Assembly (NCBI GenBank): GCA_039111535.1
Contig: JBCCIM010000001.1
Span: 25,959 to 89,958, forward strand
Origin: Bacteroidota bacterium
GTDB lineage: Bacteria; Bacteroidota; Rhodothermia; Rhodothermales; JAHQVL01
DNA length: 64,000 nucleotides
Reading direction: 5' to 3'
Positions 13,618 through 44,343 of the stretch are shown here, piece by piece (position 1 is the first letter of the stretch; the number at the start of each line of letters is the position of its first letter). The translations under genes were made by a program, and so were the position numbers. Under the pieces are notes generated by a model, which was not told the DNA's origin, did no database searches, and worked only from the letters and a program-made list of their open reading frames with translations.

Positions 13618-13752
13618 AATCAGAAAGTCCTGGCACTCAGATGGTCGATTTCAACAGGCCGTTTACAGATGGATCGATGTGAATCGGCCTCTTAAAAGGA
13701 TCGGCTGAGGTACCCGGATCTATAGCCCTGTACCATAGGAATTCGCCCTCCC

Positions 13753-15132
13753 CTACTTTCCAATACAGAAACGGGAAAAGATTTGATCTAACACGTCTTC
13801 GTTGGTGATTTCGCCCGTTATGTGTCCCAACTCATGCAGTGCAACGCGCAGGTCGAGGGCAAGCGTATCTCCCGTTGCATCCATTGCCATTGCCTGCTGC
13901 GCAGAACGCACGGCGCCGAGCGCGTTTTCAAGGTGTGCCTGGTGTCGCTGATTCATCACGACAGGCGATGCTTCTATATTTTTCAGATCAGTGCCGGCAA
14001 TGGCGAGCATCTGGTCGATGAGGGGTTGTAGCAAGGATGCATCGTGCCGGCCCTTCTCAGACGAAAGCATCTGGTGCTCGGGGGTGGTTGCTGGTTTTGA
14101 TTTGCTTTCAGGCCACGCATCGAGCTTGTTGCCGATCAGAATAATGGGCAGATGCTCCTGGGATGCACGCATCGAAGTCAGCCACGCTTCCTCTTCCGCA
14201 TCGAGTCCGGTATTTATATCGTAGACGTAGAGCAGCAAGTCTGCTGATTCAATGGAGCGCTGCGCGCGGCGTACACCTTCTGCCTCAATCACATCCTGCG
14301 CATCGCGGAGGCCGGCGGTATCAACAAACCGAAACCGCAGGCCTTCTATTTCAACTTCCGCTTCAATTTCATCGCGGGTGGTACCCGGAATATTGCTCAC
14401 GATGGCCCTATCGCGTCCGGCCAGCGCATTGAGCAAGGTAGACTTCCCGGCATTTGGCCGGCCGCCTATTACAACCCGCACACCATCGCGCACCAGAACG
14501 CCCAATTGATAGGAACCAACCAGTGCTTCCAACAACACACGAATCTGCTCCAGCAAGGCTGTCAGGCGGTCCCGATCGACGAAGTCTACGTCCTCTTCTG
14601 AAAAATCCAGTTCCAGTTCAATGAAAGCGCACAGAGAAAGCAGTTCTTCTCGCAAGCCGGCCAACTGTTCAGCATACCTTCCCTGGATGTGGTGCAGCGA
14701 AACGCGGTGGGCCATCGTTGAAGAAGCATGGATGAGATCAGCAACGGCTTCTGCCTGCGTCAAATCCATTTTTCCGTTTAGGAAAGCCCGTTGCGTGAAT
14801 TCACCAGGATTGGCAAGGCGCGCACCGTGGTCTACCAGGGTCTTGAGGATAAACTGCGAGGCAAAGTCACCGCCATGGCAAGAGATTTCTACAACGTCTT
14901 CGCCAGTGACACTGCGGGGAGATTTGAACACGACCACGACAACCTGGTCAATATCAGTGCCAGCAGCATCCTGAATGTACCCAACGTGGGCGGTGTGGGA
15001 AGGGACCGTTTTGAGATCTTTGCCACGAAAACAGGCCCCGGCAATGGTACAGGCCTCGGGGCCCGACAGGCGAACAATGGCAAGGGCAGCCTCACCACGG
15101 GCCGTAGCAATTGCAGCGATGGTGTCGGACAT
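13753..15132 (-). CDS. mnmE: tRNA modification GTPase MnmE (TrmE)
   Basis: 459 aa. G1 GRPNAGKSTLLN, DTAGLR, NKLD, and the C-terminal FCIGK motif. Confidence 0.97.
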   Translation of the reverse strand: MSDTIAAIATARGEAALAIVRLSGPEACTIAGACFRGKDLKTVPSHTAHVGYIQDAAGTDIDQVVVVVFKSPRSVTGEDVVEISCHGGDFASQFILKTLVDHGARLANPGEFTQRAFLNGKMDLTQAEAVADLIHASSTMAHRVSLHHIQGRYAEQLAGLREELLSLCAFIELELDFSEEDVDFVDRDRLTALLEQIRVLLEALVGSYQLGVLVRDGVRVVIGGRPNAGKSTLLNALAGRDRAIVSNIPGTTRDEIEAEVEIEGLRFRFVDTAGLRDAQDVIEAEGVRRAQRSIESADLLLYVYDINTGLDAEEEAWLTSMRASQEHLPIILIGNKLDAWPESKSKPATTPEHQMLSSEKGRHDASLLQPLIDQMLAIAGTDLKNIEASPVVMNQRHQAHLENALGAVRSAQQAMAMDATGDTLALDLRVALHELGHITGEITNEDVLDQIFSRFCIGK

Positions 15133-15155
15133 ACGCGTTTGGGTTTGTCCGCTGT

Positions 15156-17009
15156 TTATCGCTTCACGCGAGGCGACTTGCCTTTTTGCCGGCCATTGGA
15201 GCGCCCGTTTTTCGAGCGACCATTTGTTTTGGATTTTGTAGCAGCTTTGCCTTTTGCGTTTTTGCGTGGCCCACCCTGCTCTTCTTCAAGCTTCTTCTCA
15301 GCTTCGATCGACTTGTTGATAAACTTCTGCTGAATCGCTGTAATTACGTTATAGCAGAGATAGTACAGGTTCAGACCAGATGCCCATTTGTTGAAGATGA
15401 AGAAAATCATCGCCGGCATCAGGTACATAATCATTTTCGCCTGCGGATTGGTCGACGGCGATGCCTGGATGCGCATCTGGATGATCATCGAAATACCCAT
15501 CAACATACAGAAACCAGCTACAAAGTCACCGTAAAGTGGTATTTCAAACGGCAAGCTCAGGATTTTGTCTGGTGCAGACAGGTCATTTGCCCAAAGGAAA
15601 CCCTGCTGGCGGATTTCGATCGACTGCGGCAAGAACTGCCACAACGCGATAATGATGGGGTACTGGAACAGCATCGGCATACAGCCCCCGAGCGGATTCA
15701 CACCGGAATCCCGGTAAAGCTTCATCGTCGCTTCCTGCTGCTTCTGAGGGTTATCCCCATACTTCTCCTTGAGCGCTTCGAGCTTCGGCTGCAGCTCACG
15801 CATTTGCGCCATGCTGCGGTAAGACTTCTTCGTAAGCGGGTATACGGCTCCTTTTATCAGGAAAGCCATGATAATGATGATGATACCGTAGCTTGGGATG
15901 TAATTATCCAGGAAGTTGAATACCGGGATAAAGACAAACTTGGCGATAGGCCGGGTCAGAAATTCGAAGAAGTCCCACCCGTAATCCACCATATCATACA
16001 GGCCAAGGTCGTAGGCAGATATGCGGCTGTATTCCATGGGGCCCAGGTAGAGGCGAAATTCGTCTACGTCGCCGGTAGCAGCCGGCATTTGCAGGCGGGC
16101 CTCGTAATCTTCCCGCATATCCGGATCTTCAAGCTCGCCAAAGCGCTCGCCAATGAGCTCGGCCCCGCGTGTATCGCCGGAAGGAATCACAATCGCGGCA
16201 AAATACTGGTTCTTTACGCCAATCCAGGAAACCGAGCCCCGGACGTCTTCTTCTTCGTAGTTCTCGCCGTCGAGGGTAATGCCAACAACATCTTTGCCGG
16301 CGCGGGCATAGCTGGCGGTTTTGATGGCTTCCGTTTCGTGGTCACCTTCAGAGAACGGCACCCCGCCATCCCAAAAGAGATCGTATCCTTCGCGGGTAGA
16401 GAATGAGAGGGCATCTTCCTGTTGAAGGGAAAGGCCAACTTCATAGCTGCCCGGGGTGAACGTATACGTCTGTATAATGCGCCCCTCCCCTACCTGTACA
16501 GCAAACTGCAGGGTTGCCGGGTCGTCACCTTCATCCAGGCGAATAACATCGCCGTTTAAGTCAGTTTCAAAAAAGAAAGACCGCGTATCAACATTGCGGC
16601 TCGATGGGGTTGTAAAGAACAGACCAAGTGAGCCTACTTTAGTGGTATCAACGATATTGATTGGCGTTTCCTGGTCAAACTGTTTGAAGTTTTTCAGTTC
16701 AAAAGAAACCAGGGTGGCGCCTTTTGTGGAGAATTGGGCTTCGTAGAGGTCAGTTTCTACGGTAATAATGCGTGCTTCACCAGTTTGCGCGGCGGCAGTT
16801 GTAGAATCAACGACAACGGGTGGCGCTGCTTGCAGCGTGGGCTCCTGGGCACGCTCTTCTTCGGCCTGGAGTGGGATTTGTTCAGTAACGAGGGTAGAAT
16901 CAGCACCTGGGCCTTCACCGGGAGGCGGCAAAGGCGGGGTGATGAAATAGAACCATACCAGCAGAATCAGGGTGATGAGTACGGTTGCAGTGACTACGTT
17001 GCGATCCAA
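15156..17009 (-). CDS. yidC: Membrane protein insertase YidC
   Basis: 617 aa. Large periplasmic N-domain, 60KD_IMP core (GGCMPMLFQYPIIIALWQF) and a basic C-terminal tail. Synteny is rpmH-rnpA-yidC-mnmE. Confidence 0.96.
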   Translation of the reverse strand: MDRNVVTATVLITLILLVWFYFITPPLPPPGEGPGADSTLVTEQIPLQAEEERAQEPTLQAAPPVVVDSTTAAAQTGEARIITVETDLYEAQFSTKGATLVSFELKNFKQFDQETPINIVDTTKVGSLGLFFTTPSSRNVDTRSFFFETDLNGDVIRLDEGDDPATLQFAVQVGEGRIIQTYTFTPGSYEVGLSLQQEDALSFSTREGYDLFWDGGVPFSEGDHETEAIKTASYARAGKDVVGITLDGENYEEEDVRGSVSWIGVKNQYFAAIVIPSGDTRGAELIGERFGELEDPDMREDYEARLQMPAATGDVDEFRLYLGPMEYSRISAYDLGLYDMVDYGWDFFEFLTRPIAKFVFIPVFNFLDNYIPSYGIIIIIMAFLIKGAVYPLTKKSYRSMAQMRELQPKLEALKEKYGDNPQKQQEATMKLYRDSGVNPLGGCMPMLFQYPIIIALWQFLPQSIEIRQQGFLWANDLSAPDKILSLPFEIPLYGDFVAGFCMLMGISMIIQMRIQASPSTNPQAKMIMYLMPAMIFFIFNKWASGLNLYYLCYNVITAIQQKFINKSIEAEKKLEEEQGGPRKNAKGKAATKSKTNGRSKNGRSNGRQKGKSPRVKR

Positions 17010-17088
17010 AGTCTTGTCCTTTTTAGTCCACGCGGCCTTGTAAATGGGCCGTAAGTCGTTGTTCTACCTGTAGTTTAAGGAGAAAGGT

Positions 17089-17529
17089 TCAATCGGGCGT
17101 GTAGCCTTCTTGAATTTTCCTGACAAGCGACGAAAAAGCGGTGGGTATATGCCGGGGGATTTGCTGCGCAGCAGCGTCGAGGCTCCCCCTGAAAATAACC
17201 ATGATGGTCAATGTGGTACCAGGCTGGCTTGCGCATGCATCGAGCAGCATATGCTGGTTGCGCCTGAAAGCCTCGCGCATGTGCCGCTTCAGGGCATTGC
17301 GGTCGACGGCTCGTTTGATACCTCTGCCGGTGGTAAATCCAATTTGCAGGGGTACCGAAGCTGCAAGCTCATCCGGGGCTACTTGTCTGAATACAAGGCG
17401 GATGCAGCCGGCAGTAACGGTTTGGACGTCCTGTCTGTGTCGATCAAAAAGGGGACGAATGAGGCGTTTCCGCTTGAGGCGAAAGCCAGGGGGGAACGAT
17501 AGTCGACGAACTGACGGGTCCTGTGCCAC
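17089..17529 (-). CDS. rnpA: Ribonuclease P protein component
   Basis: Basic 146-aa protein located between rpmH and yidC. FRLKRKRLIRPLF is the typical RnpA N-terminal region. The exact start is uncertain. Confidence 0.85.
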   Translation of the reverse strand: MAQDPSVRRLSFPPGFRLKRKRLIRPLFDRHRQDVQTVTAGCIRLVFRQVAPDELAASVPLQIGFTTGRGIKRAVDRNALKRHMREAFRRNQHMLLDACASQPGTTLTIMVIFRGSLDAAAQQIPRHIPTAFSSLVRKIQEGYTPD

Positions 17530-17543
17530 ACCGGGCGCCGGGC

Positions 17544-17699
17544 TTATTTACCGCTGCGAGTATCGCTAACAGTGAGAACTTTACGACCTTTTGCACGCCG
17601 GCGGGCGAGCAGTTTGCGTCCGTTTTTTGTAGCCATACGAGAGCGGAAGCCATGTTTGTTGGCGCGCTTGCGTCGGCTGGGCTGGTAAGTGCGTTTCAT
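17544..17699 (-). CDS. rpmH: 50S ribosomal protein L34
   Basis: Absent from the ORF track because it is only 51 aa. My own translation is [51 protein letters not shown], the canonical L34 sequence. Confidence 0.95.
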
Positions 17700-17882
17700 T
17701 GATCTAAATTCAGCTGAATGATCCTGCTTCTTAAAAAGAGAGCAGGGTTTAATGCACTGCCCCCCGCCGGGTTTCGCCCTTCTCCCCTGTTTAACGAATT
17801 CTCAGGATTTGGAAACTTTTATTGTAAAGGTTAAGTTTATCGCCCTCTTTCAAAGGTATGCTGACATTGCCTTTTGATATTG

Positions 17883-23373: not shown

Positions 23374-23671
23374 GCGTCAATAGCTCACCAGGAAAAGGGC
23401 CGTCATCTACGTTAGCGGCGACCTATTTAATCTTGATGGGTCTTTTCTATTACGCACTACTTCCTGATCCAGCACACTGTCATCCTCAGCTTGACGGGGG
23501 ATCCACAGGCATGATGCTCTACAGGGATGTTTAATGCTATCCGGGTGGATAACCAATCAAGTTGGGGATGACGGTCAACGGGGCAACATGGCGATCAAAG
23601 TGTCAACCTATAATGGACGGTCTCAGGTTAACCGCCAAGCCCTTCATCATTTGCAAATTGCCAATACTGAT

Positions 23672-30465: not shown

Positions 30466-31599
30466 ATGAAATGGTTTCTAAGGGCAATTGCTTTTGCGCT
30501 TTTCCTCATTGTTGTACTCGCCATCCTGCTGCGCGTCCGCTACGGCGGTGGCGAATACTACCCCGATCTGAGTACTCCACCGCTTTGGGGTCCAGATTCT
30601 CTTGAGGTTGCTGCCACACTCGAACAACCGCCAGGTAACCTCGCGGTCTCTGCAGATAACCGGCTGTTTTTCAACTACCACCCCGAGTCCAAACCCGTCG
30701 GAGGTAGCACAGTGTTTGAATGGGTAGACGGCGCCCCGGTACCCTACCCGAGTCAGGATTTTCAATCGAACTTCATAGCCGTGCTTGGCATGTTCATCGA
30801 CCAGCAAAACCGGTTGTGGACCCTCGACACAGGTAACCAGGGTCTGGAGCCAGTCCGCCTGTTGGCGTTCGATCTGCACACCAACGCCGTCGTTCACGAC
30901 CACACCTTCCCCAAAGATATTGCGGAGTCGCTTTCTTTTATGAATGACTTGCAGGTCTCTTCAGATGGTCAAACAATTTACATTGCTGATGTGAGTTTCT
31001 GGCGACAAAATCCGGCCCTGGTGGTCTATGACATAGAAAGCAAGGAAGCCCGCCGGCTTCTCGAAGGCCACGAATCGGTAGTCGCGCAAGACTGGATTGT
31101 GCGCACTGATATCAAAGACATGGTGTTTGTTGGCGGCCTCGTTGCACTTAAGCCCGGCGTCGATGGCCTGGCTCTCAGCAAAGACGACGCGTGGTTGTAC
31201 TACGGCGCCATGACACACGACGGCCTGTACCGGGTACGCACTGCCGACTTGCTCGATCAAACCCTCGATGCAGCAACGTTGGGGAGCCGAGTGGAACGCG
31301 TGGGTACCAAGCCCCTCAACGATGGCCTTACCATTGACGTTGACAATAATGTGTACATCACAGCCGTTGAACACAATGGGGTCATTCGCATGAACCCCGA
31401 CGGCAACCTCGAGTCCCTGATTGACGACGATCGCGTACGTTGGGCTGACGGGATCAGTTATGGCGGGGATGGATACATATACTTTACCGACAGCGCAATC
31501 CCCGACCTGATGCTGCAATCCAGGGCACACATTGATGCGCGGGCGCCGTTTTACATCTATCGGTTCCGGGCTGATGTGGAAGGAGTGCCGGGAGGGTAG
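30466..31599 (+). CDS. MRJP/yellow-family beta-propeller protein
   Basis: N-terminal TM/signal segment. DQQNRLWTLDTG and DGLALSKDDAWLYYGAMTHDGLYRV match major royal jelly/yellow (PF03022-like) signatures. Confidence 0.65.
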   Translation: MKWFLRAIAFALFLIVVLAILLRVRYGGGEYYPDLSTPPLWGPDSLEVAATLEQPPGNLAVSADNRLFFNYHPESKPVGGSTVFEWVDGAPVPYPSQDFQSNFIAVLGMFIDQQNRLWTLDTGNQGLEPVRLLAFDLHTNAVVHDHTFPKDIAESLSFMNDLQVSSDGQTIYIADVSFWRQNPALVVYDIESKEARRLLEGHESVVAQDWIVRTDIKDMVFVGGLVALKPGVDGLALSKDDAWLYYGAMTHDGLYRVRTADLLDQTLDAATLGSRVERVGTKPLNDGLTIDVDNNVYITAVEHNGVIRMNPDGNLESLIDDDRVRWADGISYGGDGYIYFTDSAIPDLMLQSRAHIDARAPFYIYRFRADVEGVPGG

Positions 31600-31661
31600 A
31601 TGAATGCCGATTGTCGAATGCCGATTGTCGAGTGGTTGTTGGTTAACGCAGTACCATCTCC

Positions 31662-31694
31662 ACACGTCATGCCGGACTTGATCCGGTATCCAGA
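31662..31694 (+). repeat. REP-like hairpin element, intergenic copy
   Basis: ACACGTCATGCCGGACTTGATCCGGTATCCAGA (CCGGA/TCCGG stem). Identical over 33 nt to the in-CDS copies at 38362 and 40652. Confidence 0.9.
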
Positions 31695-31743: not shown

Positions 31744-31774
31744 ATGTCATCCTGAGCCGTGCGAAGGATCTCTG
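31744..31774 (+). repeat. GTCATCCTGAGC-family REP, copy A
   Basis: ATGTCATCCTGAGCCGTGCGAAGGATCTCTG, 31 nt identical to 31842-31872. Confidence 0.9.
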
Positions 31775-31841: not shown

Positions 31842-31872
31842 ATGTCATCCTGAGCCGTGCGAAGGATCTCTG
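31842..31872 (+). repeat. GTCATCCTGAGC-family REP, copy B
   Basis: 31-nt direct repeat of 31744-31774, 98 nt downstream. Confidence 0.9.
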
Positions 31873-32581: not shown

Positions 32582-35473
32582 CTAGACGCCGGCGCACTGA
32601 GTACGTAACTGTTGTACACCGGCAAGTTTCGGGTGTGAGGTGGACAGGTACCGATAGATGCTGGTTGCTTCATCAAGGAGCTTCAATGCCTCCGCACATT
32701 GCCTTTGCGTAACGCGCAATGTACCAATTCCGGTTAAGGTTCGGGCCAGCGTTGAATTTGTTGAGGCCAGCTTTTCGCGCTGTAGTTCGAGTGCAAGAAG
32801 ATACAACGAGTCGGCTGCGGGTGCGTCCCCTAATGCGTCCTGAATACTGGCATGTACAGCCCAGGCAGCCCCCCAACGTGGGTGCCCGGTATCAAGTCCT
32901 ATTTCATAGGCGTTTAGTGCTTTGTTAGAAAACGCAAGCGCTTCATCAGGCTGATTTCTCGCTAATAAAATACGCGCCTTCCAGCTGAAACTTGCGGCTG
33001 TTGAACGATGCTCGTTCCCGACCAGCTTCATCAACATTGCAGTCGCACGATCCGAATACGCAAGCGCCAATTCTGTTTTTCCTTGCTCGAGAAGCGCCTG
33101 ACCTAGATAATCCAGGTTAAGGGCAATATAGACGTGTTCTTCGCCAAGCGTTTTTCTATCGATTTCCATCACACTCCGATACATGCGCTCCGCCCCCGCA
33201 TAATCGCCGTATACCATACGCAGTCGGGCCATGTTGTACATGGTACTGCCTACACGGGAGTCCACCTCGCCAAAGATTACTTTTTGGATTTCCAAAGCCG
33301 TTGCAAACAACGAATCTGCCTCCAGATAGGCCCCCAGCGATTGTTTAGCAACCGCTTTGCGTACCATTACAGAAGCCGATTCGGCATGATTAAAACCATA
33401 ATTATGGATATAGACCTCTAGCGCCTCGCCAAAGAGCGAGTCAGCAATTTCATATTCAGCCTGATCGAGTTTTTGTGCGCCCAGATTGGCGAGACTGAGC
33501 GCAAAGTGTGGATGTTGCTCCCCGAGCGTAACGCGCCGACTTTCTAACACTTCGGTATACAGCGACTCAGCTAGTTGAACATTATCGGTGGCTGAGTACA
33601 TGGTGGCCAGGTTGTTCTGCAAAGTCAGTACGTCGGAATGATTCGGATCATCATATTCCTCATCATAAATGGCCAGGGCTTCATTGTAGTACGATATGGC
33701 AGTATCGTATGCTGCTCGGTCATTATGAAGGATCCCTAAACCAAGCGCGCTTTCTGCCACATCCAGATGTTTTGGTCCAAACAGCCGAACCCGCATATCG
33801 TAAGATCGGCGATACAAAGAATCAGCTTCGTCAAATTCCTCTGTAAGTCGCTTCAGCCAGGCAAGGTTGTACAAACTTGTGGCAATATCGGGATGATCAG
33901 GGCCATTCACTTCCTCGCGGACCTTTAACGCCTGAAACAGTAGCGAATCTGCTTTTTCAAAACTGCCTAATTCTCTATAAACCCTTCCCAAGGTGGCCAA
34001 CATTTCACCCTTTACCTCTGGTTGATCCTGCAGCTCCTCATTGATGCGCCCTACGCCCTGATCGAGTAATTCTCGAACCTGTATGGAATCACCTTGCGCC
34101 TGTAACATGGGGTTAGATGCTTCAAACAAGCTGATGGTGAACTCCTTTACACGGTCTGCTTTTGCCGCTTCGCTGGCAGCTTCTCTCGCCTGCCACAGGG
34201 TAGTAAACAAGCCGGCAAAAAGGCTCATTACCAACAGTGATGCCAACGCCACAGCACTCCGATGCCGGCGCACAAACTTACCTGCCCGGTACCCAAACGT
34301 ATCCGAACGGGCAAGCACGGGTAACCCTTCGAGGTGACGCCGAATATCTTCAAAAAATGCCTCCGCTGATGCATAGCGGCGATCGGGCTCTTTGCGCAGG
34401 GCCTTGAGCACAATCGTATCCAGGTCGCCGGCCAACCGCCGCTGCAAACGGTCTGGGTGTGTACTTCGCTGCTGACTCACAGTGACGGGGTCCGTGCCCG
34501 TCTTGTCCTGGACGGCTACAGAAGGCCGGCTTGGTGCTGATGCCGCGATTGCCTCGCTGATGTGTTTGGGTGACGCGTTATCCGCTACAAACGGCCGACG
34601 ACCAACAAGCAGTTCATACAAAACCACGCCCAGCGCATACACATCCGTGGCCGTGGTTACGGGTTCGCCGCTGAATTGCTCGGGTGCAGCGTATTCCGGC
34701 GTCATCGGGGTACTGCCCATCTGAGTTAACGTTTGCCCGGGTGTGGTATCGGGAGTGAGGAGTTTGGCGATCCCGAAGTCGAGCAGCTTGAGCTCGTCAG
34801 CCGAGGTTACAAGCATGTTGGACGGCTTGAGGTCGCGGTGTACCGTCAGATTTTGATGCGCGTACTGCACTGCCTTGCATACGTGCTGAAAAAGCTGGAG
34901 CCGGGCGTCGATATCGAGTGTATGCTCGTTGCAATACTTGATCAGTGACGTGCCGGCAACGTATTCCATAACGATGTAGGGCCGACCGGCTTCGTCTACG
35001 CCGCCATCAAGCAACCGGGAAATGTTGGGGTGCCGCAGCTGTGCAAGGATTTGCCGCTCACGCAAAAACCGCTCGCGCACCTGTGCCGTATCGATGCCCT
35101 GCTTCATGAGCTTGAGTGCTACCTGCTGCTCAAACTGCCCATCGGCCCGTTCAGCAAGGTAGACGACGCCCATGCCACCACGACCAATTTCTCGTATGAG
35201 TTGGTAAGAGCCAACCCGGGTGCCGGCTTCAGCTATGGAGCCCTGATGAGTTTCCTGCAACAGCACGGCGGCATTCGATCCGTCTATAACATCCAGATAA
35301 CTGGCAGCTTTTTCATGAGCCTCGCAGAGTGCTTCTACATGGGCACGCAAGTGGGGCTGCGTTTCACACGCGTTTTCCAAAAAGACAGCGCGTTCCACTC
35401 CAGACAAAGTGATGGCCTCGGCAAACAAGGCTTCGATTTGTTGCCAGTGCTGGCGTTCAAACTCGCTTTTCAT
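32582..35473 (-). CDS. Ser/Thr protein kinase with one TM helix and a large TPR array
   Basis: Hanks motifs GRGGMGVVY, VALK, HRDLKPSN, DFG and APE. TM helix AVALASLLVMSLFAGLFTTLW, followed by ~540 aa of TPR-like repeats. Confidence 0.93.
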   Translation of the reverse strand: MKSEFERQHWQQIEALFAEAITLSGVERAVFLENACETQPHLRAHVEALCEAHEKAASYLDVIDGSNAAVLLQETHQGSIAEAGTRVGSYQLIREIGRGGMGVVYLAERADGQFEQQVALKLMKQGIDTAQVRERFLRERQILAQLRHPNISRLLDGGVDEAGRPYIVMEYVAGTSLIKYCNEHTLDIDARLQLFQHVCKAVQYAHQNLTVHRDLKPSNMLVTSADELKLLDFGIAKLLTPDTTPGQTLTQMGSTPMTPEYAAPEQFSGEPVTTATDVYALGVVLYELLVGRRPFVADNASPKHISEAIAASAPSRPSVAVQDKTGTDPVTVSQQRSTHPDRLQRRLAGDLDTIVLKALRKEPDRRYASAEAFFEDIRRHLEGLPVLARSDTFGYRAGKFVRRHRSAVALASLLVMSLFAGLFTTLWQAREAASEAAKADRVKEFTISLFEASNPMLQAQGDSIQVRELLDQGVGRINEELQDQPEVKGEMLATLGRVYRELGSFEKADSLLFQALKVREEVNGPDHPDIATSLYNLAWLKRLTEEFDEADSLYRRSYDMRVRLFGPKHLDVAESALGLGILHNDRAAYDTAISYYNEALAIYDEEYDDPNHSDVLTLQNNLATMYSATDNVQLAESLYTEVLESRRVTLGEQHPHFALSLANLGAQKLDQAEYEIADSLFGEALEVYIHNYGFNHAESASVMVRKAVAKQSLGAYLEADSLFATALEIQKVIFGEVDSRVGSTMYNMARLRMVYGDYAGAERMYRSVMEIDRKTLGEEHVYIALNLDYLGQALLEQGKTELALAYSDRATAMLMKLVGNEHRSTAASFSWKARILLARNQPDEALAFSNKALNAYEIGLDTGHPRWGAAWAVHASIQDALGDAPAADSLYLLALELQREKLASTNSTLARTLTGIGTLRVTQRQCAEALKLLDEATSIYRYLSTSHPKLAGVQQLRTQCAGV

Positions 35474-35561
35474 AGACGTTATGTGAGATACCTGACAGTC
35501 GACACGTCTTAATCTGCGTTTTTAACAGAAAAAAACTGACAGACAGTAGATGGTACTTGAC

Positions 35562-36131
35562 TTACTGTTCTTCCAACTGGATAAACAACCACGCCTTAGC
35601 CAACTGCCAGTCGCGCAAAGCGGTACGCTCAGAAATTTCCAGCACCTGGGCGATTTCGTCCATTTTCAACCCACCAAAAAACCGGCACTCAACCACTTTC
35701 GCCTGACGCGGACTGCGGTCGGCTAACAATTGCAAGGCTTCATCAAGATCCACGAGATGAGAGGCAAATGCCTCTACCGCGATGTGTTGTTCATCCAGCG
35801 ACAACGCGCGTTCTTTGCCGCCCCGTTTGAGCCGGGTGCGACGGCGCGCGTGGTCTACCAGGATTTGCCGCATAGCCCGGGCAGCAGCACCGAAAAAATA
35901 CGCACGGCCTTTTGCAGTCACCTGGGTTTGATCCACCAGCTTCAGATAAGCTTCGTGTACCAGCGCGGTGGTGTTGAGCGTGTGGTGTTGGCGCTCCTGT
36001 AAGAGGTATTTATGCGCCATACCCCGCAGTTCGTCATACACCGCGCTAACCACGGCATCAGCGTTCACGCTTGCATCCACAGATACGCGATTGAGCAAGA
36101 CGGTCACAGCCTGGGAAGTCGTGCCGGCCAT
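35562..36131 (-). CDS. ECF sigma factor (PF07638/TIGR02999-like)
   Basis: Start chosen at MAGTTSQAVTVLL. HTLNTTALVHEAYLKLVDQ is the signature of this ECF type. Region 4 HTH is MDEIAQVLEISERTALRDWQLAKAWL. Confidence 0.9.
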   Translation of the reverse strand: MAGTTSQAVTVLLNRVSVDASVNADAVVSAVYDELRGMAHKYLLQERQHHTLNTTALVHEAYLKLVDQTQVTAKGRAYFFGAAARAMRQILVDHARRRTRLKRGGKERALSLDEQHIAVEAFASHLVDLDEALQLLADRSPRQAKVVECRFFGGLKMDEIAQVLEISERTALRDWQLAKAWLFIQLEEQ

Positions 36132-36402
36132 TTGTACAGGAGTGGGGTGAAGATAATAATGACAGCGCGCTGCCAAAACAGCATATGTAGTATAGCAACT
36201 TTTAAGGCCAATCTCGACCAAGTGACGCTACCCTCCATTTTCCTCACATCAGGTGGTGTTTAGAAAAAACTGACTGGGCATGGCAGTTTTTCTGAAGGAC
36301 TGTCGCAGGACAAAACACAGGCGCATCGTACAGCTCGTCAGCAGTGCATCTCAGCCTCGGTTACATGCGCCGGCTATTACGCTCACATAAACCCACAACA
36401 CC

Positions 36403-38658
36403 ATGCGAACCACACTTTTCCTCACGCTTCTCTGTTTGCTCGTACAGCCAGTTTTTGGTCAGCAATATGGGCATCACCTGGACTGGCTCAATGCAGTCAC
36501 AGATGACACATTCATCAACGACGTAGCCCTCGACGCAGACGAATTAGTTTATATCGTTGGGTCTGGCCTTGACAATATAGATTTTGACGGACCAACGATA
36601 ACAGGACAGGGCGGAGAGGCTTCCGTCGATGGTGCTACGATGTTCTTTGCTGCCTATTCCCCTGATGGTCAACTGGTCATGTCGCGCATAATCTCAGCCA
36701 GCATTTTTAGCGAAGGATACGGCATAGCCATTGGCAAATCGGGTGATATTTATGTAGCCGGCATCGTGCGGGGTATTGCTGATTTTGATGGCCCCAATAG
36801 TACCGATAAGGGAGGAGAGGTCCTCACCGAAAAACCCGAGCTTTTCATTGCCCGATACACCGCATCCAACAACCTGGTATGGGTAACAACAACAAATACC
36901 TTTGAAGGAGATGGCTTTCAGTATCCGGACGCATCTGACTACGAGGACCGCATCAAACTTGAAGTCAGTCTGCAGGGAAATGTCTACGTGTCCGCTGAGT
37001 ATTTGCAGGAAGGGCCTGTCGACTTTGACGGCCCCCACACTAAAGGACAAGGGGGAGAGATCCATCTGAATATCGATTCATTTGTCGCCAAGTATGACGC
37101 GCAAGGTGCCCTGTTGTGGGTCAATCATATTCTGACTGAGACCGCCTATTCAGGAATTGTTGACCTGGACGTTAATCATAACGATGAGGTCTTCATTGTC
37201 GGAGGCTTTGATGCGCGCATCGATCTGGATGGCCTTGAAACCAATGCGCAGGGAGGCGAACTGATCACGCCCCAGCACAAAATGTTTTTGGCCAAATATG
37301 ATGTGAATGGCATCTTGCAATGGGCAACAACACCAACCGGTGCATCAACAAAAGGATTTGGCGTCGAGATAACGCCTAAAGGGAATATTTATGCCGCCGG
37401 CAATTTTAAAGGCAGCGTAGATTTTGACGGCCCCTTTACAACAGGACAAGGAGGAGAACTGGTATCAACCGGGGCATACAGAGACTATTTTCTTGCCCGG
37501 TATCAACCAAACGGGGTACTGGATTGGGTCAACCTGATCGATACAAAATCCACGTGTTGTGATGAAAGCCGCGGCCCAGATATAGCAACAGGATTTTCCG
37601 GGGTGTACGCGATCGGACAATTTGAGCGTGAAGTTGATTTTGATGGCCCTAAAGCACACGGTGATGGCAGCAGATTTTTTATCCCGGACGCCCAAAGCTC
37701 GTTTATTGCCAAGTACAACCATGCCGGCGACTTCTTATGGGCCAAACCAGGTACAAGTGCCGGCAATTATAGCAGAGCCTCTTCCATTTCGGTGTTTGGG
37801 TCAGATGAGCACATCGCCATGACTGGACATTTTGTAGAAAGCTTCTCATTCGAAGGATCTACGATTACAGGTACACCGGGTGCCCCCCAATTCTGGGATT
37901 ATTTTGTTGCCAAACTCAATCCCAACGTTTTTGGTCAGGCACCACAACCGCCTTATTCAATAAAGCCTTTTACCTTCTTCGAAGCTGAGTCCCACGTCTT
38001 CATCCACCCCGAAGACATCGTTGCCAGCCTGGTTGATTCACAAGGTGATGAGATGCCCGTCGAATCAGCTATCTTCACCGCCGTCACAGCAGACGAAGAA
38101 CTCCAACACGAGTTGCTCATCGACGGCTGCCAGTTCCTCGGCCTGCCGGCTTTGCTTGATGAAGAAACCAACGGCCACGTCTACACCATCCACATGGCAG
38201 CGACCGACCGCTACGGCGTAACCGGTGAATGGCAGGTGCCGGTACACATCATACGCGAAGGCATGGAAGAAGCTGAGCAAGACGAGACTGTGTTTGAGGC
38301 CGTCGTCTGCTCAGAAAACGAAACCGGCCAGGCCCAAAGCAGCAAGGACCAGCTACACCTTACACGTCATGCCGGACTTGATCCGGTATCCAGAAAAGAG
38401 CCAACACTCACCGCCTACCCAAACCCATTCAATCCACAGACAACCCTGTCGCTATCGCTCCCAGTCGCCCAGCACGTCCGCGTCGCAGTCTACGACATGC
38501 TGGGCCGGCAGGTAGCGCTCATCCACGACGGATTGCTGGATGCCAACCAATCCCACAGCTTCACCTTCGATGCCGCGAAGCTCCCAAGCGGCGCTTATCT
38601 GGTGCGGGTGCAGGGTGAGGGCTTTGTCCAGAGCCGGCGCATCAGCCTGGTGAAGTAA
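36403..38658 (+). CDS. T9SS-secreted seven-bladed beta-propeller repeat protein, paralog 1
   Basis: Signal peptide, then seven blades (..VY..G...DFDGP..TGQGGE....F.AKY...G.L.W), an acidic ~115-aa domain, and the YPNPFNPQTT..VAVYDMLGRQV..SGAYLV CTD. Confidence 0.9.
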   Translation: MRTTLFLTLLCLLVQPVFGQQYGHHLDWLNAVTDDTFINDVALDADELVYIVGSGLDNIDFDGPTITGQGGEASVDGATMFFAAYSPDGQLVMSRIISASIFSEGYGIAIGKSGDIYVAGIVRGIADFDGPNSTDKGGEVLTEKPELFIARYTASNNLVWVTTTNTFEGDGFQYPDASDYEDRIKLEVSLQGNVYVSAEYLQEGPVDFDGPHTKGQGGEIHLNIDSFVAKYDAQGALLWVNHILTETAYSGIVDLDVNHNDEVFIVGGFDARIDLDGLETNAQGGELITPQHKMFLAKYDVNGILQWATTPTGASTKGFGVEITPKGNIYAAGNFKGSVDFDGPFTTGQGGELVSTGAYRDYFLARYQPNGVLDWVNLIDTKSTCCDESRGPDIATGFSGVYAIGQFEREVDFDGPKAHGDGSRFFIPDAQSSFIAKYNHAGDFLWAKPGTSAGNYSRASSISVFGSDEHIAMTGHFVESFSFEGSTITGTPGAPQFWDYFVAKLNPNVFGQAPQPPYSIKPFTFFEAESHVFIHPEDIVASLVDSQGDEMPVESAIFTAVTADEELQHELLIDGCQFLGLPALLDEETNGHVYTIHMAATDRYGVTGEWQVPVHIIREGMEEAEQDETVFEAVVCSENETGQAQSSKDQLHLTRHAGLDPVSRKEPTLTAYPNPFNPQTTLSLSLPVAQHVRVAVYDMLGRQVALIHDGLLDANQSHSFTFDAAKLPSGAYLVRVQGEGFVQSRRISLVK

Positions 38659-38712
38659 GCCTCCTCACTCCTAACTCACTACTGAAAACCATACCATCAT
38701 GAAATACCTACG
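37981..38712 (+). repeat. Conserved 3' cassette, copy 1 (C-terminal module + spacer + next start)
   Basis: Aligns by eye at roughly 90% nt identity with 40271-41006 and 42508-43185. Similarity continues through the stop, the spacer and ATGAAATACCTACG. Confidence 0.9.
38362..38394 (+). repeat. REP-like hairpin element embedded in-frame in paralog 1
   Basis: Same 33-mer as the intergenic copy at 31662-31694. It is translated as TRHAGLDPVSR. Confidence 0.9.
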
Positions 38713-40948
38713 CCCTATTCTTGCTACTACTTTACTTTTTGTCCTGGTAGAGTCGGCTACAGCCCAGCAATTTGGTCATCACCTTGATTGGCTTAAAGGG
38801 CCTTTAGATAATGTCACTATTCGCGAGAGTGTCATTGGAATGGATGAATCAGTTTACATATGGGGATCAGGCAAAGGAGCGATTGACCTTGATGGCCCTG
38901 CCAGTTCAGGACAAGGTGGTGAACAGTTCTTAACCGAATGGAAAACCATCTTGGCTAAATATGACAAACATGGAAAATTGACATGGTTCAAGATCATCTA
39001 CCATACGGCTGACTTATGGCATTTAAACGGCGTACACAGTATGGCTATCGGGCCACACGGTGATCTTTATCTCGTTGGAAAAGGAGAGGATTCCTTTGAC
39101 TTTGATGGGCCGAATATAACAGGCCAAGGGGGTGAAATCTACTTTGAAAGGGATGAAATATTCATTGCTAAATACAATGCACAGGGTTGGCTCTCATGGG
39201 TCATACAAACCACATCAACCGAAGGAATTGGCGTCGATAATAGTAAAAACCTAAAAATCCAAACAGGTCCATACGATGACGTCTTTGTTTTCGGAGGACT
39301 GGGAAAAGGTACCGTTGATTTCGATGGCACCACGAAAACCGGCCAGGGAGGTGAATTAACAATTCCAACAGGCGGTTTCTATACATTTCTAGCAAAATAC
39401 AATGGGATTAGCGCACTGCAATGGGTCAAGCGCATTCGAATAAACGATCTCTTTAACTATCAAGAATTAAGCGTTAGCAACAATAATGAACCGTTCATTG
39501 CAAGTAAACAATCAGGACCGATAGACCTGGATGGTCCACACATAACTGGCCAAGGTGGTGAAATGATCTTAGACTACGATCAACTGATATTGGCGAAGTT
39601 TGATACTTATGGCAGTTTTTTGTGGGCCCGAAAAACCGCTTCATCCTCAGGATTTGTTAATGTACTTAGTGTTGACGCAAGTCCAGATGGAGCGGTATAT
39701 GTAGTAGCAGATATCTTAGAATGGATAGATTTTGACGGCCCCTTAACGACCGGCCAAGGCGGTGAAATCCAGGGTGGAGAAGACTTTGCTGACATCTGGA
39801 CCTATTCTATCCTCGCCAGATACGAGGCAGATGGGACGTTCGGTTGGGTTAAGTTAATAAAATTAAATTTGGGTGACAGCATACCATCTATTCAAGCAGG
39901 CAGCTCAGGTGTTTACATAGCAGGGGATTTTCGTGAAACCATGGATCTTGACGGCCCAGATCTAGACCATCCAGGTAGTAGTGCAACCACTAGCATAGGG
40001 ACCTCCAGCGCATTTGTAGCCAAATATCTACACGATGGATCCTTCAATTGGGCCATGGTAGGTTCTGAAATGAGCACCTCCCGTTCGCTGGCGCTTACCG
40101 AACCCACAGAACACCTAGTATACAATGGTATTTTTAAAAACAGCTTCTTGTTTGAAGGATCAACGGTGGGTAGTCAAGACGACAATTGGGAACAGTTTAT
40201 CGCAAAAATAGACCCTACCACATTAGTAGGCCCTGGCCCACCTTACAGCCTTACCCCAATCCCACTCTACGAAGCTGAATCCCACGTCTTCATCCACCCC
40301 GAAGACATCGTTGCCAGCCTGGTTGATTCACAAGGTGATGAGATGCCTGTCGAATCAGCCATCTTCACCGCCGTCACCGCTGACGAAGAACTGGAAGACG
40401 AGCTGCTCATGGATGGCTGCCAGTTCCTCGGCCTGCCGGCTTTGCTTGATGAAGAAACCAACGGCCGCGTCTACACCATCCATATGGCTGTGACTGATCG
40501 CTATGGTGAAATCGGCGAGTGGCAAGTGCCGGTACACATCATACGCGAAGGCATGGAAGAAGCTGAGCAGGACGAGACAGCTTTCGAAGCAGTTGTCTGC
40601 TCAGAAAACGAAACCGGCAAAGCCCAAAGCAAAGACGATCAACTCAACCTTACACGTCATGCCGGACTTGATCCGGTATCCAGAAAAGAGCCAGCGCTCA
40701 CCGCCTACCCGAATCCGTTCAATCCACAGACAACCGTGTCGCTATCGCTCCCATCCACCCAGCACGTCCGCGTGGCGGTCTACGACATGCTCGGCCGGCA
40801 GGTAGCGCTCATCCACAACGGGATGCTGGATGCCAACCAATCCCACAGCTTCACTTTTGATGCCGCAAAGCTCCGAAGCGGCGCTTACCTGGTGCGTGTG
40901 CAAGGTGAGAGCTTTGTCCAGAGCCGGCGCATCAGCCTCGTGAAGTAA
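38699..40948 (+). CDS. T9SS-secreted seven-bladed beta-propeller repeat protein, paralog 2
   Basis: Same architecture as paralog 1. The N-terminal 520 aa are strongly diverged and AT-richer, while the C-terminal 226 aa are nearly identical. Confidence 0.9.
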   Translation: MKYLRPILATTLLFVLVESATAQQFGHHLDWLKGPLDNVTIRESVIGMDESVYIWGSGKGAIDLDGPASSGQGGEQFLTEWKTILAKYDKHGKLTWFKIIYHTADLWHLNGVHSMAIGPHGDLYLVGKGEDSFDFDGPNITGQGGEIYFERDEIFIAKYNAQGWLSWVIQTTSTEGIGVDNSKNLKIQTGPYDDVFVFGGLGKGTVDFDGTTKTGQGGELTIPTGGFYTFLAKYNGISALQWVKRIRINDLFNYQELSVSNNNEPFIASKQSGPIDLDGPHITGQGGEMILDYDQLILAKFDTYGSFLWARKTASSSGFVNVLSVDASPDGAVYVVADILEWIDFDGPLTTGQGGEIQGGEDFADIWTYSILARYEADGTFGWVKLIKLNLGDSIPSIQAGSSGVYIAGDFRETMDLDGPDLDHPGSSATTSIGTSSAFVAKYLHDGSFNWAMVGSEMSTSRSLALTEPTEHLVYNGIFKNSFLFEGSTVGSQDDNWEQFIAKIDPTTLVGPGPPYSLTPIPLYEAESHVFIHPEDIVASLVDSQGDEMPVESAIFTAVTADEELEDELLMDGCQFLGLPALLDEETNGRVYTIHMAVTDRYGEIGEWQVPVHIIREGMEEAEQDETAFEAVVCSENETGKAQSKDDQLNLTRHAGLDPVSRKEPALTAYPNPFNPQTTVSLSLPSTQHVRVAVYDMLGRQVALIHNGMLDANQSHSFTFDAAKLRSGAYLVRVQGESFVQSRRISLVK

Positions 40949-41006
40949 GGCTCCTCACTCCTATCTCCTAACTCACTACTCAAAACACCATCATGAAATA
41001 CCTACG
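40271..41006 (+). repeat. Conserved 3' cassette, copy 2
   Basis: See 37981-38712. The spacer differs by a short indel. Confidence 0.9.
40652..40684 (+). repeat. REP-like hairpin element embedded in-frame in paralog 2
   Basis: Identical 33-mer ACACGTCATGCCGGACTTGATCCGGTATCCAGA. Confidence 0.9.
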
Positions 41007-43185
41007 TCTAGCTCTCACAATCGCCGTACTTTGTATCTGCGTTCCAGCTTCCGCACAATTCCCAACTGAATTACAATGGCTGTATGGCATAACAGGGGAC
41101 TATTACCCCAGGGACATGGTCATTAGTCCTGATGGGGATATTTACACGGTTGGCGTCATTTCTAGCGCGGCCGATTTGAACGGGCCGGCAATACCCGGAG
41201 GTGAAATACAGGTAAAAGGGACGCATCAAATGATCGTCAAATACAGCGCAAGCGGAGATATTCTGTGGACACGGCTGCTCAAGCAAGACGGATCGATTTA
41301 TATCAAGCTTGGCCCTGCGCAAGAAGTGTACTTGACTGGCACAGTTGCCGGCTGGATAGACCTGGATGGCCCCTCCCTCACAGGCCAGGGCGGAGAACGC
41401 TACATGGGCGAATCCCGAGCAATTTTTATCGCGCAGTACACATCAGACAATACATTCAACTGGGTAAAAAAGATAAACGCCCACTCAATTTACGGAAATG
41501 AGTTTGATGTCAGTCCGGATGGCAGCCTGTATCTAAGGGGACATTTCTGGGACGTCGTTGATTTTGACGGGCAGCTGAATACGGGCCAAGGTGGGGAGTT
41601 GTATGCAGATGACATGGGCTATTTTGTAGCCAAGTTTTCATCAAACGGATCATTTTTGTGGACCAAACAGATTGTACCCGAGACCAATGGCAGCTCGCAT
41701 GTAACCAAGGGTATTCGCGCCGGCACGAACAATGAACTCTATATCCTCTACCACTCAAGAGGTTATATAGATCTTGATGGCCCAACAATCACAGACCAGG
41801 GTGGGGAATGGGATGTACCGAGCGATGAGTTACTTCTCGCAAAATACGCTGCAACCGGTAACCTGGAATGGGTCACGCACACCGTGTCACCTAAAGGCAA
41901 TTTCTGGGTCGAAGATTTGGATGTTGGTCCTGATGGATATGTCTATGTTGCCGGGTCCGTACGAGGCCGTATTGATTTTGATGGCCCATACAAAACAGGA
42001 CAGGGCGGAGAGTTTACAGCCGTAGCGTTTAGCGATATGTTTATAGCAAAGTTTACGGCGCACGGAGATTTTGAAAGAGTAATCACAGCCACCGGCCCAG
42101 ACTTTGATCAAGCAAAGGACGTATCCGTAAGTGCCTCAGCTATTTACCTTACCGGATATTTTCAGGAAGCTATCGATTTTGATGGCCCCAACACCCAGGC
42201 GGCAGGTGGTGAAGTCACGGGACAAATACTGCAAAACCTGTTTCTGGTAAGCTATACCCACGACGGTGATTTCTTATGGGTCAAAACTTCAGAGGGAGGG
42301 TTTGGTGAAAATATCGGATACTACCTTGATGCCAACGAAAATGACCAGCTTGCCTTTTATGGTCATGTTATCGACCCGGCTTCTTTTGAAGGTGCTGAAA
42401 TCATAAACACCTTTCAGTTTATCTCCTTGCTCGACAAAGCCGGACTAACAGAATACGAAGAACCCACACCGCCTTATCATATCGACCCGGTTGTGTTTTA
42501 TGAAGTCGAAGCTGAATCCCACGTCTTCATCCACCCCGAAGACATCGTCACCAGTCTGGTTGATTCACAGGGCGGTGAAATGCCCGTCGAGTCCGCCATC
42601 TTCACCGCCGTCACAGCGGACGAGGAGTTGGAAGATGAACTACTCATGGACGGCTGCCAGTTCCTCGGCCTGCCAGCTTTGCTTGATGAAGAAACCAACG
42701 GCCGCGTCTACACCGTCCACATGGCAGCCACCGACCGCTACGGCGTAACTGGTGAATGGCAGGTCCCAGTACACATCATCCGCGAAGGCATGGAAGAAGC
42801 TGAGCAAGACGAGACAGCCTTCGAAGCCGTCGTCTGCTCAGAAAACGAAACCGGCCAGGCCCAAAGCAAAGACGATCAACTCAACCTGACACGTCATGCC
42901 GGACTTGATCCAGTATCCAGAAAAGAGCCGACGCTCACCGCCTACCCAAATCCATTTAACCCGCAGACAACCCTGTCGCTATCGCTCCCAGTCACCCAGC
43001 ACGTCCGCGTCGCCGTCTACGACATGCTCGGCCGGCAGGTAGCGCTCATCCACGACGGATTGCTGTATGCCAACCAATCCCACAGCTTCACCTTCGATGC
43101 CACAAAGCTCCCAAGCGGTGCTTATCTCGTGAGGGCGCAAGGCGAGGGTTTTGTCCAGAGCCGGCGCATTAGCCTGGTGAAGTAG
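40993..43185 (+). CDS. T9SS-secreted seven-bladed beta-propeller repeat protein, paralog 3
   Basis: Same architecture: signal peptide MKYLRLALTIAVLCICVPASAQ, seven blades, conserved cassette and CTD. Confidence 0.9.
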   Translation: MKYLRLALTIAVLCICVPASAQFPTELQWLYGITGDYYPRDMVISPDGDIYTVGVISSAADLNGPAIPGGEIQVKGTHQMIVKYSASGDILWTRLLKQDGSIYIKLGPAQEVYLTGTVAGWIDLDGPSLTGQGGERYMGESRAIFIAQYTSDNTFNWVKKINAHSIYGNEFDVSPDGSLYLRGHFWDVVDFDGQLNTGQGGELYADDMGYFVAKFSSNGSFLWTKQIVPETNGSSHVTKGIRAGTNNELYILYHSRGYIDLDGPTITDQGGEWDVPSDELLLAKYAATGNLEWVTHTVSPKGNFWVEDLDVGPDGYVYVAGSVRGRIDFDGPYKTGQGGEFTAVAFSDMFIAKFTAHGDFERVITATGPDFDQAKDVSVSASAIYLTGYFQEAIDFDGPNTQAAGGEVTGQILQNLFLVSYTHDGDFLWVKTSEGGFGENIGYYLDANENDQLAFYGHVIDPASFEGAEIINTFQFISLLDKAGLTEYEEPTPPYHIDPVVFYEVEAESHVFIHPEDIVTSLVDSQGGEMPVESAIFTAVTADEELEDELLMDGCQFLGLPALLDEETNGRVYTVHMAATDRYGVTGEWQVPVHIIREGMEEAEQDETAFEAVVCSENETGQAQSKDDQLNLTRHAGLDPVSRKEPTLTAYPNPFNPQTTLSLSLPVTQHVRVAVYDMLGRQVALIHDGLLYANQSHSFTFDATKLPSGAYLVRAQGEGFVQSRRISLVK
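42508..43185 (+). repeat. Conserved 3' cassette, copy 3
   Basis: See 37981-38712. Similarity ends at the stop codon, and the downstream sequence is unrelated. Confidence 0.9.
42889..42921 (+). repeat. REP-like hairpin element embedded in-frame in paralog 3
   Basis: Same element with one stem-breaking substitution (TCCAGT instead of TCCGGT). Confidence 0.85.
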
Positions 43186-43746: not shown

Positions 43747-43892
43747 TGTCGATTTTCGATTGCCGAGTGTCGATTTATGTTTTTCATTTAAAACAATCGG
43801 CATTCGGCATTCCTTTCTGGATACCGGATCAAGTCCGGCATGACGTGATAAAGAAGCTATGCGTTAGCCCCAAAGCCAATCGAAAATCGACA
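43747..43892. repeat. MITE-like composite repeat bounded by 16-bp perfect inverted repeats
   Basis: TGTCGATTTTCGATTG (43747-43762) is the exact reverse complement of CAATCGAAAATCGACA (43877-43892). The interior carries a GAATGCCGA module and a REP hairpin copy. Confidence 0.6.
43816..43847 (-). repeat. REP-like hairpin element, intergenic copy in reverse orientation
   Basis: Reverse complement reads CACGTCATGCCGGACTTGATCCGGTATCCAGA. Confidence 0.9.
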
Positions 43893-43914
43893 TTCGAAAA
43901 TCGAAAATCCTCCC

Positions 43915-44343
43915 CTATCGGTCGCTGCGCTGTTTCAGCTTCTTCCTAAAGTCCTTCAGCGCAATGAGGGCAACTCCACTCGTTATTACGGCACCGATGC
44001 CAAATACCCACTTCCCTATGATACCGTTGGTGGTTTGATCGAGGAAAGGCAGGCCCCCAGAGATGTTTTCCGGGTCACCATTGAATGCAATCCAAAAGCC
44101 CATAATGGCCATGGGTATCAAAATCAAAACCGCCATGCCGGCGCGCATGGGAGTGTCCTCATCAAAACCAAGCGCACCGCCACAGGCCATTAACACAAAC
44201 CCCACCAGACCAAGAATCCAGCGGGGTGCATTAAACGAATCAGGGGGAGCTGGAATGAAACCAGCAGCTGTTGCGGTGATAAATGCGCCAAGCAGGATGC
44301 AGAACAAAGCAAGCCAACCCGGCACACGCGTATTTGCCATCAC
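43915..44343 (-). CDS. Hypothetical four-TM membrane protein
   Basis: 142-aa hydrophobic ORF ending with a basic tail. Lies immediately downstream of the helicase gene on the same strand. Confidence 0.65.
   Translation of the reverse strand: MMANTRVPGWLALFCILLGAFITATAAGFIPAPPDSFNAPRWILGLVGFVLMACGGALGFDEDTPMRAGMAVLILIPMAIMGFWIAFNGDPENISGGLPFLDQTTNGIIGKWVFGIGAVITSGVALIALKDFRKKLKQRSDR

Follow-up and report, generated by a model that had tools for sequence, protein, structure and literature searches.

The closest described counterparts of the element analysed here are the NTS repeats of Neisseria (CGTCATTCCCGCGMAVGCGGGAATCYRG), which have been generalised as the 'Ssn-related motif' (SRM), a class of oriented hairpin repeats that includes dRS3 (Chenal et al., Nat Commun 2025, PMC11893778). 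Small single-domain GIY-YIG nucleases (Ssn) bind and cut NTS and SRM repeats, and do so only when the DNA is single-stranded; the enzyme that has been characterised does not interact with RNA, and an ssn gene usually has its own repeats on both sides (PMC11893778). In Neisseria, NTS cluster at surface-protein genes and lower how much transforming DNA is integrated, and they are seldom intragenic (2% in N. meningitidis 8013) (PMC11893778). The SRM has the flanks 5' HGTCWY and 3' RNCYNB, which take the form CGTCAT ... ATCYRG in NTS, and has been searched for with the string HGTCWYN(0-2)YYVSBRHN(0-5)WNVSBRGN(0-2)RNCYNB, a manual heuristic derived from 29 genomes (PMC11893778). In-frame palindromic repeats in proteins are already known from the Rickettsia palindromic elements (RPE) and from other MITE/REP families (review PMC10969869). 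The present analysis concerns a 33-nucleotide hairpin element, ACACGTCATGCCGGACTTGATCCGGTATCCAGA (also written CGTCATGCCGGACTTGATCCGGTATCCAG), in a stretch of 64,000 nucleotides of contig JBCCIM010000001.1 from a Bacteroidota bacterium of the Rhodothermales; the whole stretch is referred to as the window. By its sequence architecture and the genes that accompany it, the 33-mer is an NTS/SRM-type repeat with a different stem, in a host lineage that is new for the Ssn/NTS-SRM system. The reading that we favour, at a probability of roughly 0.8, is that one copy of this lineage's repeat was acquired in the linker of a protein secreted by the type IX secretion system (T9SS), was spread among three paralogs by module duplication or conversion, and persists as a neutral passenger.

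Three tandem paralogs carry the element in-frame, and two further copies are intergenic:

31662..31694, plus strand: intergenic copy, no mismatches, 63 nucleotides past the stop codon of an MRJP-like gene (30466-31599, plus strand)

36403..38658, plus strand: paralog 1, 751 amino acids; its N-terminal part is SBBP-type beta-propeller-like and is followed by an 'NGxVYTIH' module, then a linker and a T9SS C-terminal domain (CTD)

37981..38658, plus strand: C-terminal module of 678 nucleotides in paralog 1, with the repeat inside it and counterparts at 40271-40948 and 42508-43185

38362..38394, plus strand: hairpin repeat in the coding sequence of paralog 1, no mismatches, read as TRHAGLDPVSR (residues 654-664)

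38699..40948, plus strand: paralog 2, 749 amino acids

40652..40684, plus strand: hairpin repeat in the coding sequence of paralog 2, no mismatches

40993..43185, plus strand: paralog 3, 730 amino acids

42889..42921, plus strand: hairpin repeat in the coding sequence of paralog 3, one mismatch, stem broken

43816..43848, minus strand: intergenic copy, one mismatch (the first base), 67 nucleotides past the stop codon of an open reading frame (ORF) at 43915-44343 (minus strand)

These five copies were recovered by a search of the window that allowed up to three mismatches to the 33-mer, and no match was found across 100 dinucleotide-preserving shuffles. The copy search and the ORFs thus bear out an earlier sequence-only reading of this DNA, which had reported the copies, the in-frame peptide TRHAGLDPVSR and the two intergenic occurrences; its location of the reversed copy also stands, with the end moved from 43847 to 43848. 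When the five contexts were aligned, the likeness between coding and intergenic copies was confined to about 34-37 nucleotides and ended a few bases outside the 33-mer, so the intergenic copies are not fragments of the paralog genes. An origin of the intergenic copies as such fragments, or by chance likeness, would suit the presence of only five copies in the window itself, three of them coding, but it is scarcely credible in view of the empty shuffles, the lack of likeness beyond the element, the occurrence of its core at many loci of many phyla, nearly all of them non-coding, and its position on both sides of a GIY-YIG gene in a related genome, the last two of which are described below.

The element is laid out as C-GTCAT / GCCGGA-CTTGA-TCCGGT / ATCC-AG, with a predicted stem of 8 bp, and direct inspection of the sequence shows four of its six reading frames to be open. 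The predicted minimum free energy of an intact copy is -5.5 kcal/mol as DNA and -10.5 kcal/mol as RNA. In paralog 3, a G to A change at 42912, synonymous at the codon level (CCG to CCA), abolishes the predicted hairpin (-5.5 to -2.2 kcal/mol as DNA, -10.5 to -5.3 kcal/mol as RNA), in agreement with the sequence-only reading that a substitution breaks the stem of this copy. The same reading had proposed that an RNA hairpin ahead of the CTD affects translation or mRNA processing, and a hairpin that acts in the mRNA, as a ribosome pause before the CTD or as a processing or stability element, would find some encouragement in the sense orientation of the repeat in all three genes, in the predicted 8-bp RNA hairpin, and in the two intergenic copies, which are likewise sense-oriented and lie in the 3' regions of genes. 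The stability of the hairpin is ordinary, however, when compared with shuffled sequences (z of -1.3 to -1.4; 20-21 of 200 shuffles fold equally well), the stem of paralog 3 was destroyed without a compensating change, a search of the whole window against Rfam at the gathering threshold returned two tRNAs only and no family for the element, and the characterised Ssn partner of this class has no interaction with RNA; a role in the mRNA is therefore quite improbable, and the earlier proposal is not upheld. Hammerhead-like and tRNA-like readings of the motif were dropped on inspection by eye, the core nucleotides being absent.

The wider family was surveyed in one genome per species with the pattern GTCATGCCGGA-N5-TCCGGTATCC, which describes a core of 26 nucleotides. 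At least 120 loci carry the core, and their hosts include Rhodothermales, Desulfobacterales, Sphingomonadales, Binatia, Zetaproteobacteria, Chlorobium, Bipolaricaulota and others. Of 131 copies among the matches listed, 85 have the loop CTTGA, and bases that the pattern does not specify are also conserved (125 copies: C before the core in 78%; A in 91% and G in 78% after it). The flanks of the window element, CGTCAT ... ATCCAG, are those of the Neisseria NTS and agree with the SRM flanks HGTCWY and RNCYNB. In a set of 30 distinct variants that were picked by flanks and loop only, with no requirement for pairing, pairing is seen in 95% of cells; shuffles give 75.5% (none of 500 reaches the observed value) and slid controls at most 47%, and six of the eight stem pairs show double-sided changes. 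Among the matches listed from other phyla, an inverted partner lies no more than 60 nucleotides away for 43 of 125 copies. The core is identical across phyla, for example at 34 of 34 positions with a Desulfatitalea locus (L113); the 33/33 identity between coding and non-coding copies, which had been taken as a sign of recent mobility, reflects constraint on the family consensus and not recency.

Several further arrangements of the repeat were noted in these genomes. In an unclassified metagenome-assembled genome (MAG), a stretch of 8 kb (L013, 600-7800) contains, besides a GIY-YIG gene (3042-3338), over 25 hairpin variants, each with the CTTGA loop and with stems that differ compensatorily. 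A head-to-tail array of elements with a period of 40 nucleotides is found in Chlorobium (L008, 76-221), and half-site stutters are found in Endobugula (L007, L074), where GTCATGCCGGAC is repeated upstream and GGTATCC downstream; the array and the stutters are hints of replication-slippage or nick-repair dynamics at the hairpin. One exact copy of the core occurs in an IMG/VR viral contig (L122, 2468-2493; IMGVR_UViG_2663763045_000003).

The most informative comparison is with a Rhodothermales MAG, CBDHHF01, which is a relative of the source of the window (its locus L047 is 81% identical in nucleotide sequence to window positions 12950-17777 over 4.9 kb). At least 27 copies of the element are present in this MAG and have in common the invariant unit CAC-GTCATGCCGGACTTGATCCGGTATCC-AGA; the coding copies of the window carry the full unit, and that of paralog 1 agrees fully with this lineage consensus. 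The MAG also encodes, at 6122-6409 on the minus strand of locus L081, an ORF of 96 amino acids that matches the Pfam GIY-YIG family (PF01541, E = 2e-16), with the repeat CACGTCATGCCGGACTTGATCCGGTATCCAGAAAA 60 nucleotides upstream of its ATG and an inverted copy, CTGGATACCGGATCAAGTCCGGTATGACGTG, 7 nucleotides past its stop codon. Homologues of this protein are arranged similarly: the gene of P0127, which is 66% identical to it, stands between copies of CGTCATTCCCGCGAAAGCGGGAATCCAG in inverted orientation, and this sequence is the exact NTS consensus; the gene of P0239 is bracketed by TCGTCATGCCGGACTCCGATCCGGCATCCAGAC, a near-variant of the window element, and that of P0163 by NTS-like hairpins. 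The 66% identity to the NTS-bracketed P0127 makes the protein of L081 a putative member of the Ssn clade (CDD cd10448). In a sequence search of the PDB, the nearest match was the UPF0213 GIY-YIG protein 1zg2, and the other matches were UPF0213 GIY-YIG proteins and one spurious WD40 entry. A 75%-identical GIY-YIG protein, MEM8485820.1, bears the label 'Bacteroidota bacterium', as do the window proteins MEM8483946.1 and MEM8483947.1, and its accession number is higher by 1,874. Two of three sampled small GIY-YIG homologues, together with their flanking hairpins, lie inside type I restriction-modification operons (L143, 1-3288; L146/L147, 1-3288), one inserted between hsdR and hsdM and the other between hsdM/RhuM and hsdS.

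The claim of the sequence-only reading that a dispersed family of intergenic hairpins has given rise to an in-frame linker copy common to three paralogs is therefore sustained, the element being abundant and nearly always non-coding in the related genome and in many phyla (copies in the source genome were counted within the window). The designation 'REP-like' holds as far as a hairpin repeat is meant, and is refined to an NTS/SRM type tied to a putative Ssn-family GIY-YIG nuclease. Among the matches listed, no convincing internal in-frame insertion was found in about 130 copies from other loci, which fits the published intragenic share of 2% for NTS. Long open frames across the element in other loci proved to be arginine-rich nonsense in high-GC DNA, or upstream leaders. 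A candidate intragenic copy at 6082-6107 of L098, read as VMPEGVRYP in a MacB/FtsX-type permease, was rejected as a chance match of 21 specified bases with the loop AGGCG, so that pattern matches in coding DNA need checking.

In the proteins of the window, the peptide precedes the T9SS CTD (Pfam PF18962), which begins at residue 672 of paralog 1, 8 residues past the peptide. The C-terminal modules of the three paralogs align without indels and are about 90% identical in nucleotide sequence, whereas the N-terminal parts of about 525 residues are about 35% identical in amino acid sequence. The jump in identity is sharp and falls at an EAESHVF motif (37981, 40271, 42508); among tandem paralogs, such a jump suggests concerted evolution by gene conversion or cassette exchange. 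The repeat sits within the homogenised tract and not at its boundary, and since it is inside the shared module, a single acquisition, with later duplication or gene conversion, is enough to account for all three copies. Variation in the module affects 15% of its columns and 33% of its third positions, and the 33-mer has one variable column; as 9.6% of 33-nucleotide windows of the module have no more than one variable column (for third positions, P ~0.08), the element shows no significant sign of extra constraint at the nucleotide level.

The peptide TRHAGLDPVSR was absent from all 22 homologues with the module-plus-CTD architecture and is thus not ancestral to the protein family; the case that the sequence-only reading had named as refuting, orthologues that lack the repeat family and yet encode the peptide, clearly did not arise. 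The linkers of the homologues are 18-45 amino acids long and share no sequence, and 20 more distant homologues from metagenomes keep the same layout of module, linker and CTD. The nearest homologue from outside the window, P0003, has the same architecture at 33% identity, and its linker reads QEKSSPNAPM where the paralogs have TRHAGLDPVSRKEPT. In a low-confidence AlphaFold2 model of the module, built from a shallow alignment (mean pLDDT 58), residues 93-138 have pLDDT values below 50, the peptide corresponding to residues 128-138; past a short helix no secondary structure is predicted (about residues 102-141), and the beta-sandwich of the CTD comes directly after. The place of the element 8 residues ahead of the CTD, the varying linker lengths and, weakly, this model point to a structurally permissive linker that is probably disordered. 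A scan of metagenomes for the element with a YPNPF-coding motif 5-35 nucleotides after it, as recurrent capture in T9SS linkers would give, returned no matches. A possible relic of the element in the linker DNA of P0003, where the hexamers ACACGT ... ATCCAG are shared, was indistinguishable from chance, and no SRM was found in the 12.8 kb of L121.

As to the direction and mode of acquisition and the neutrality of the peptide, we infer the following course. One copy of the repeat would have joined, by insertion, the hypervariable linker that joins the 'NGxVYTIH' module to the T9SS CTD of an ancestral gene, where it could persist since four of the six frames of the repeat are open and the linker is under little structural constraint. 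Duplication or gene conversion would then have carried the 678-nucleotide module to the three tandem paralogs, or made it uniform among them, so that the three coding copies would represent a single event. TRHAGLDPVSR would most likely be a neutral passenger in the linker, and the coding DNA may still be a substrate of the lineage's Ssn when single-stranded.

A different account of the same copies is that selection has kept them as working Ssn sites, cleavage at which would influence recombination, transformation or gene conversion in the paralog array, as in the NTS-gene-NTS arrangements of Neisseria. It would draw on the perfect copies held by paralogs 1 and 2 though 33% of third positions in the module vary, on the four direct copies and one inverted copy that bracket and punctuate a block of 12 kb, and on the NTS precedent at surface-protein genes (PMC11893778). 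Against this, the conservation is not significant by the module statistics given above, the stem of paralog 3 was lost through a synonymous change, and the element lies inside the homogenised tract and not at its edge; selection for cleavage sites is accordingly judged unlikely. By the same analogy, the 11-codon stretch might double as a linker and as an Ssn target on the coding strand, governing the exchange of C-terminal cassettes among the paralogs or their replacement by incoming DNA, which we consider rather doubtful.

The favoured reading, a tolerated passenger acquired once, has several observations to contend with. No ssn gene was found in the 64-kb window by regular-expression search or by tblastn, and the probable origin of MEM8485820.1 from the same genome as the window is based on the proximity of the accessions. 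The published SRM string has no strict match in the window, the element being two substitutions away from it; this string is a search heuristic and not a biological definition, and it is matched by sister variants with the CTTGA loop, for instance CGTCACCCCGGACTTGATCCGGGGTCCAC in L013. A search of 5.8 billion proteins and of metagenome contigs gave no close orthologue above 33-35% identity, and because close orthologues are lacking and the linkers of the homologues are unalignable, no clean empty site can be demonstrated. Aligned with P0003, the paralogs show a net replacement of +5 amino acids and not a clean indel, and neither a target-site duplication nor any other footprint of an insertion can be seen. 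A chimera of the assembly is unlikely, since the ORF is unbroken and contiguous homologues are collinear with it on both sides of the element.

Other hairpin modules were noted in the window:

23476..23508, plus strand: diverged SRM-like module GTCAT-CCTCAGC-TTGA-CGGGGG-ATCCACAG, forming a convergent doublet with the module at 23544..23575

23544..23575, minus strand: diverged SRM-like module GTCAT-CCCCAA-CTTGA-TTGGTT-ATCCACC, with flanks and loop as in the 33-mer

31746..31772, plus strand: repeat of a second type, GTCATCCTGAGCCGTGCGAAGGATCTC, in the same intergenic mosaic as the copy at 31662, with an exact second copy at 31844-31870, about 98 nucleotides away

The diverged relative that had been recognised at 23537-23575 is thus a module on the minus strand with the flanks and loop of the 33-mer, and it faces a second module at 23479 on the plus strand. 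The two modules of this doublet (23476-23575) are about 35 nucleotides apart, and their arrangement is like that of the GTCAT[hp]ATCCAG-N-CTGGAT[hp]ATGAC doublets of other phyla, where [hp] is the hairpin, and is REPIN-like. A relaxed scan of the window for GTCA[TC] followed by a hairpin gave 18 matches where 10 were expected, and was too noisy to add copies.

Short tandem motifs, GAATGCCGATTGTC and CGATTTTCGAATG, form mosaics around both intergenic copies (31600-31640 and 43795-43910); GAATGCCGATTGTC motifs precede the copy at 31662, and the copy at 43816-43848 has the same mosaic flanks. In the related Rhodothermales MAG (L081, 5950-6620; L037) the element is set among the same two motifs, in a BIME-like mosaic. 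The second repeat type, GTCATCCTGAGCCGTGCGAAGGATCTC, shares the head GTCAT and the tail ATC of the main element, with weak pairing. A module of the type GTCATCCTGAGC...GAAGGATC, similar to GTCATCCTGAGCCGTGCGAAGGATCTC and with the antisense reading 'VILSEAEGS', alternates with the main element in L075 in repeats of about 183 nucleotides. Modules like GTCATCCTGAGCCGTGCGAAGGATCTC may be the target of another type of nuclease. Just upstream of the T9SS paralogs (32582-36221), a Ser/Thr kinase of 963 amino acids with TPR repeats and an extracytoplasmic function (ECF) sigma factor (PF07638) are encoded divergently, and these may form a regulatory unit with the paralogs.

By these findings the Ssn/NTS-SRM system is extended to a Rhodothermales-like lineage, and since the hairpin variant escapes the published string, censuses of SRM probably undercount the class. 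The window offers a clean case of such a repeat translated in an intact protein, at the linker between cargo and CTD of T9SS substrates, and the coding constraint on either side bounds the conserved repeat unit to roughly 34 nucleotides; if the coding copies function as Ssn sites, an autonomous mobile SRM unit would be delimited to about the same length. For annotation, RHAGLDPVSR, VMPDLIRYP and WIPDQVRHD in predicted proteins should usually be taken as translated SRM repeats. As a whole, the locus is an example, and a rather ordinary one, of selfish repeat DNA that a protein tolerates, and not a new kind of system.

Compared with known systems, the element is most like the NTS/SRM repeats: it is an oriented semi-palindrome with the flanks CGTCAT ... 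ATCCAG and a stem of 6-8 bp that shows covariation, its family comprises hundreds of dispersed copies that lie mostly between genes, a gene that encodes a GIY-YIG protein of about 96 amino acids stands between inverted copies, intragenic copies are occasional, and doublets and mosaics with other hairpin types are formed. It differs in its stem-loop, GCCGGA-CTTGA-TCCGGT, which is two positions off the published string, in its host, a Rhodothermales-like Bacteroidota MAG, and in the translation of three of the five copies in the window. With the RPE it shares the occurrence of a palindromic family both between genes and in-frame within genes, where a peptide is added without destroying the protein; RPEs, however, are about 100-150 bp long, encode 30-50 amino acids and have been inserted many times independently, whereas the unit in the window is about 33-37 nucleotides long (11-12 amino acids) and goes back, as proposed above, to a single event, and the protein associated with it is a GIY-YIG nuclease. 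The REP/BIME-RAYT systems, in which the partner TnpA-REP is a Y1 transposase of the IS200/IS605 type and REPINs are formed, are similar in their short extragenic palindromes, inverted doublets, mosaic clusters and a cognate nuclease gene that has its own repeats on either side, but the window element has no head of the GTAG type, its partner is a GIY-YIG protein and not an HUH Y1 transposase, and no RAYT was seen.

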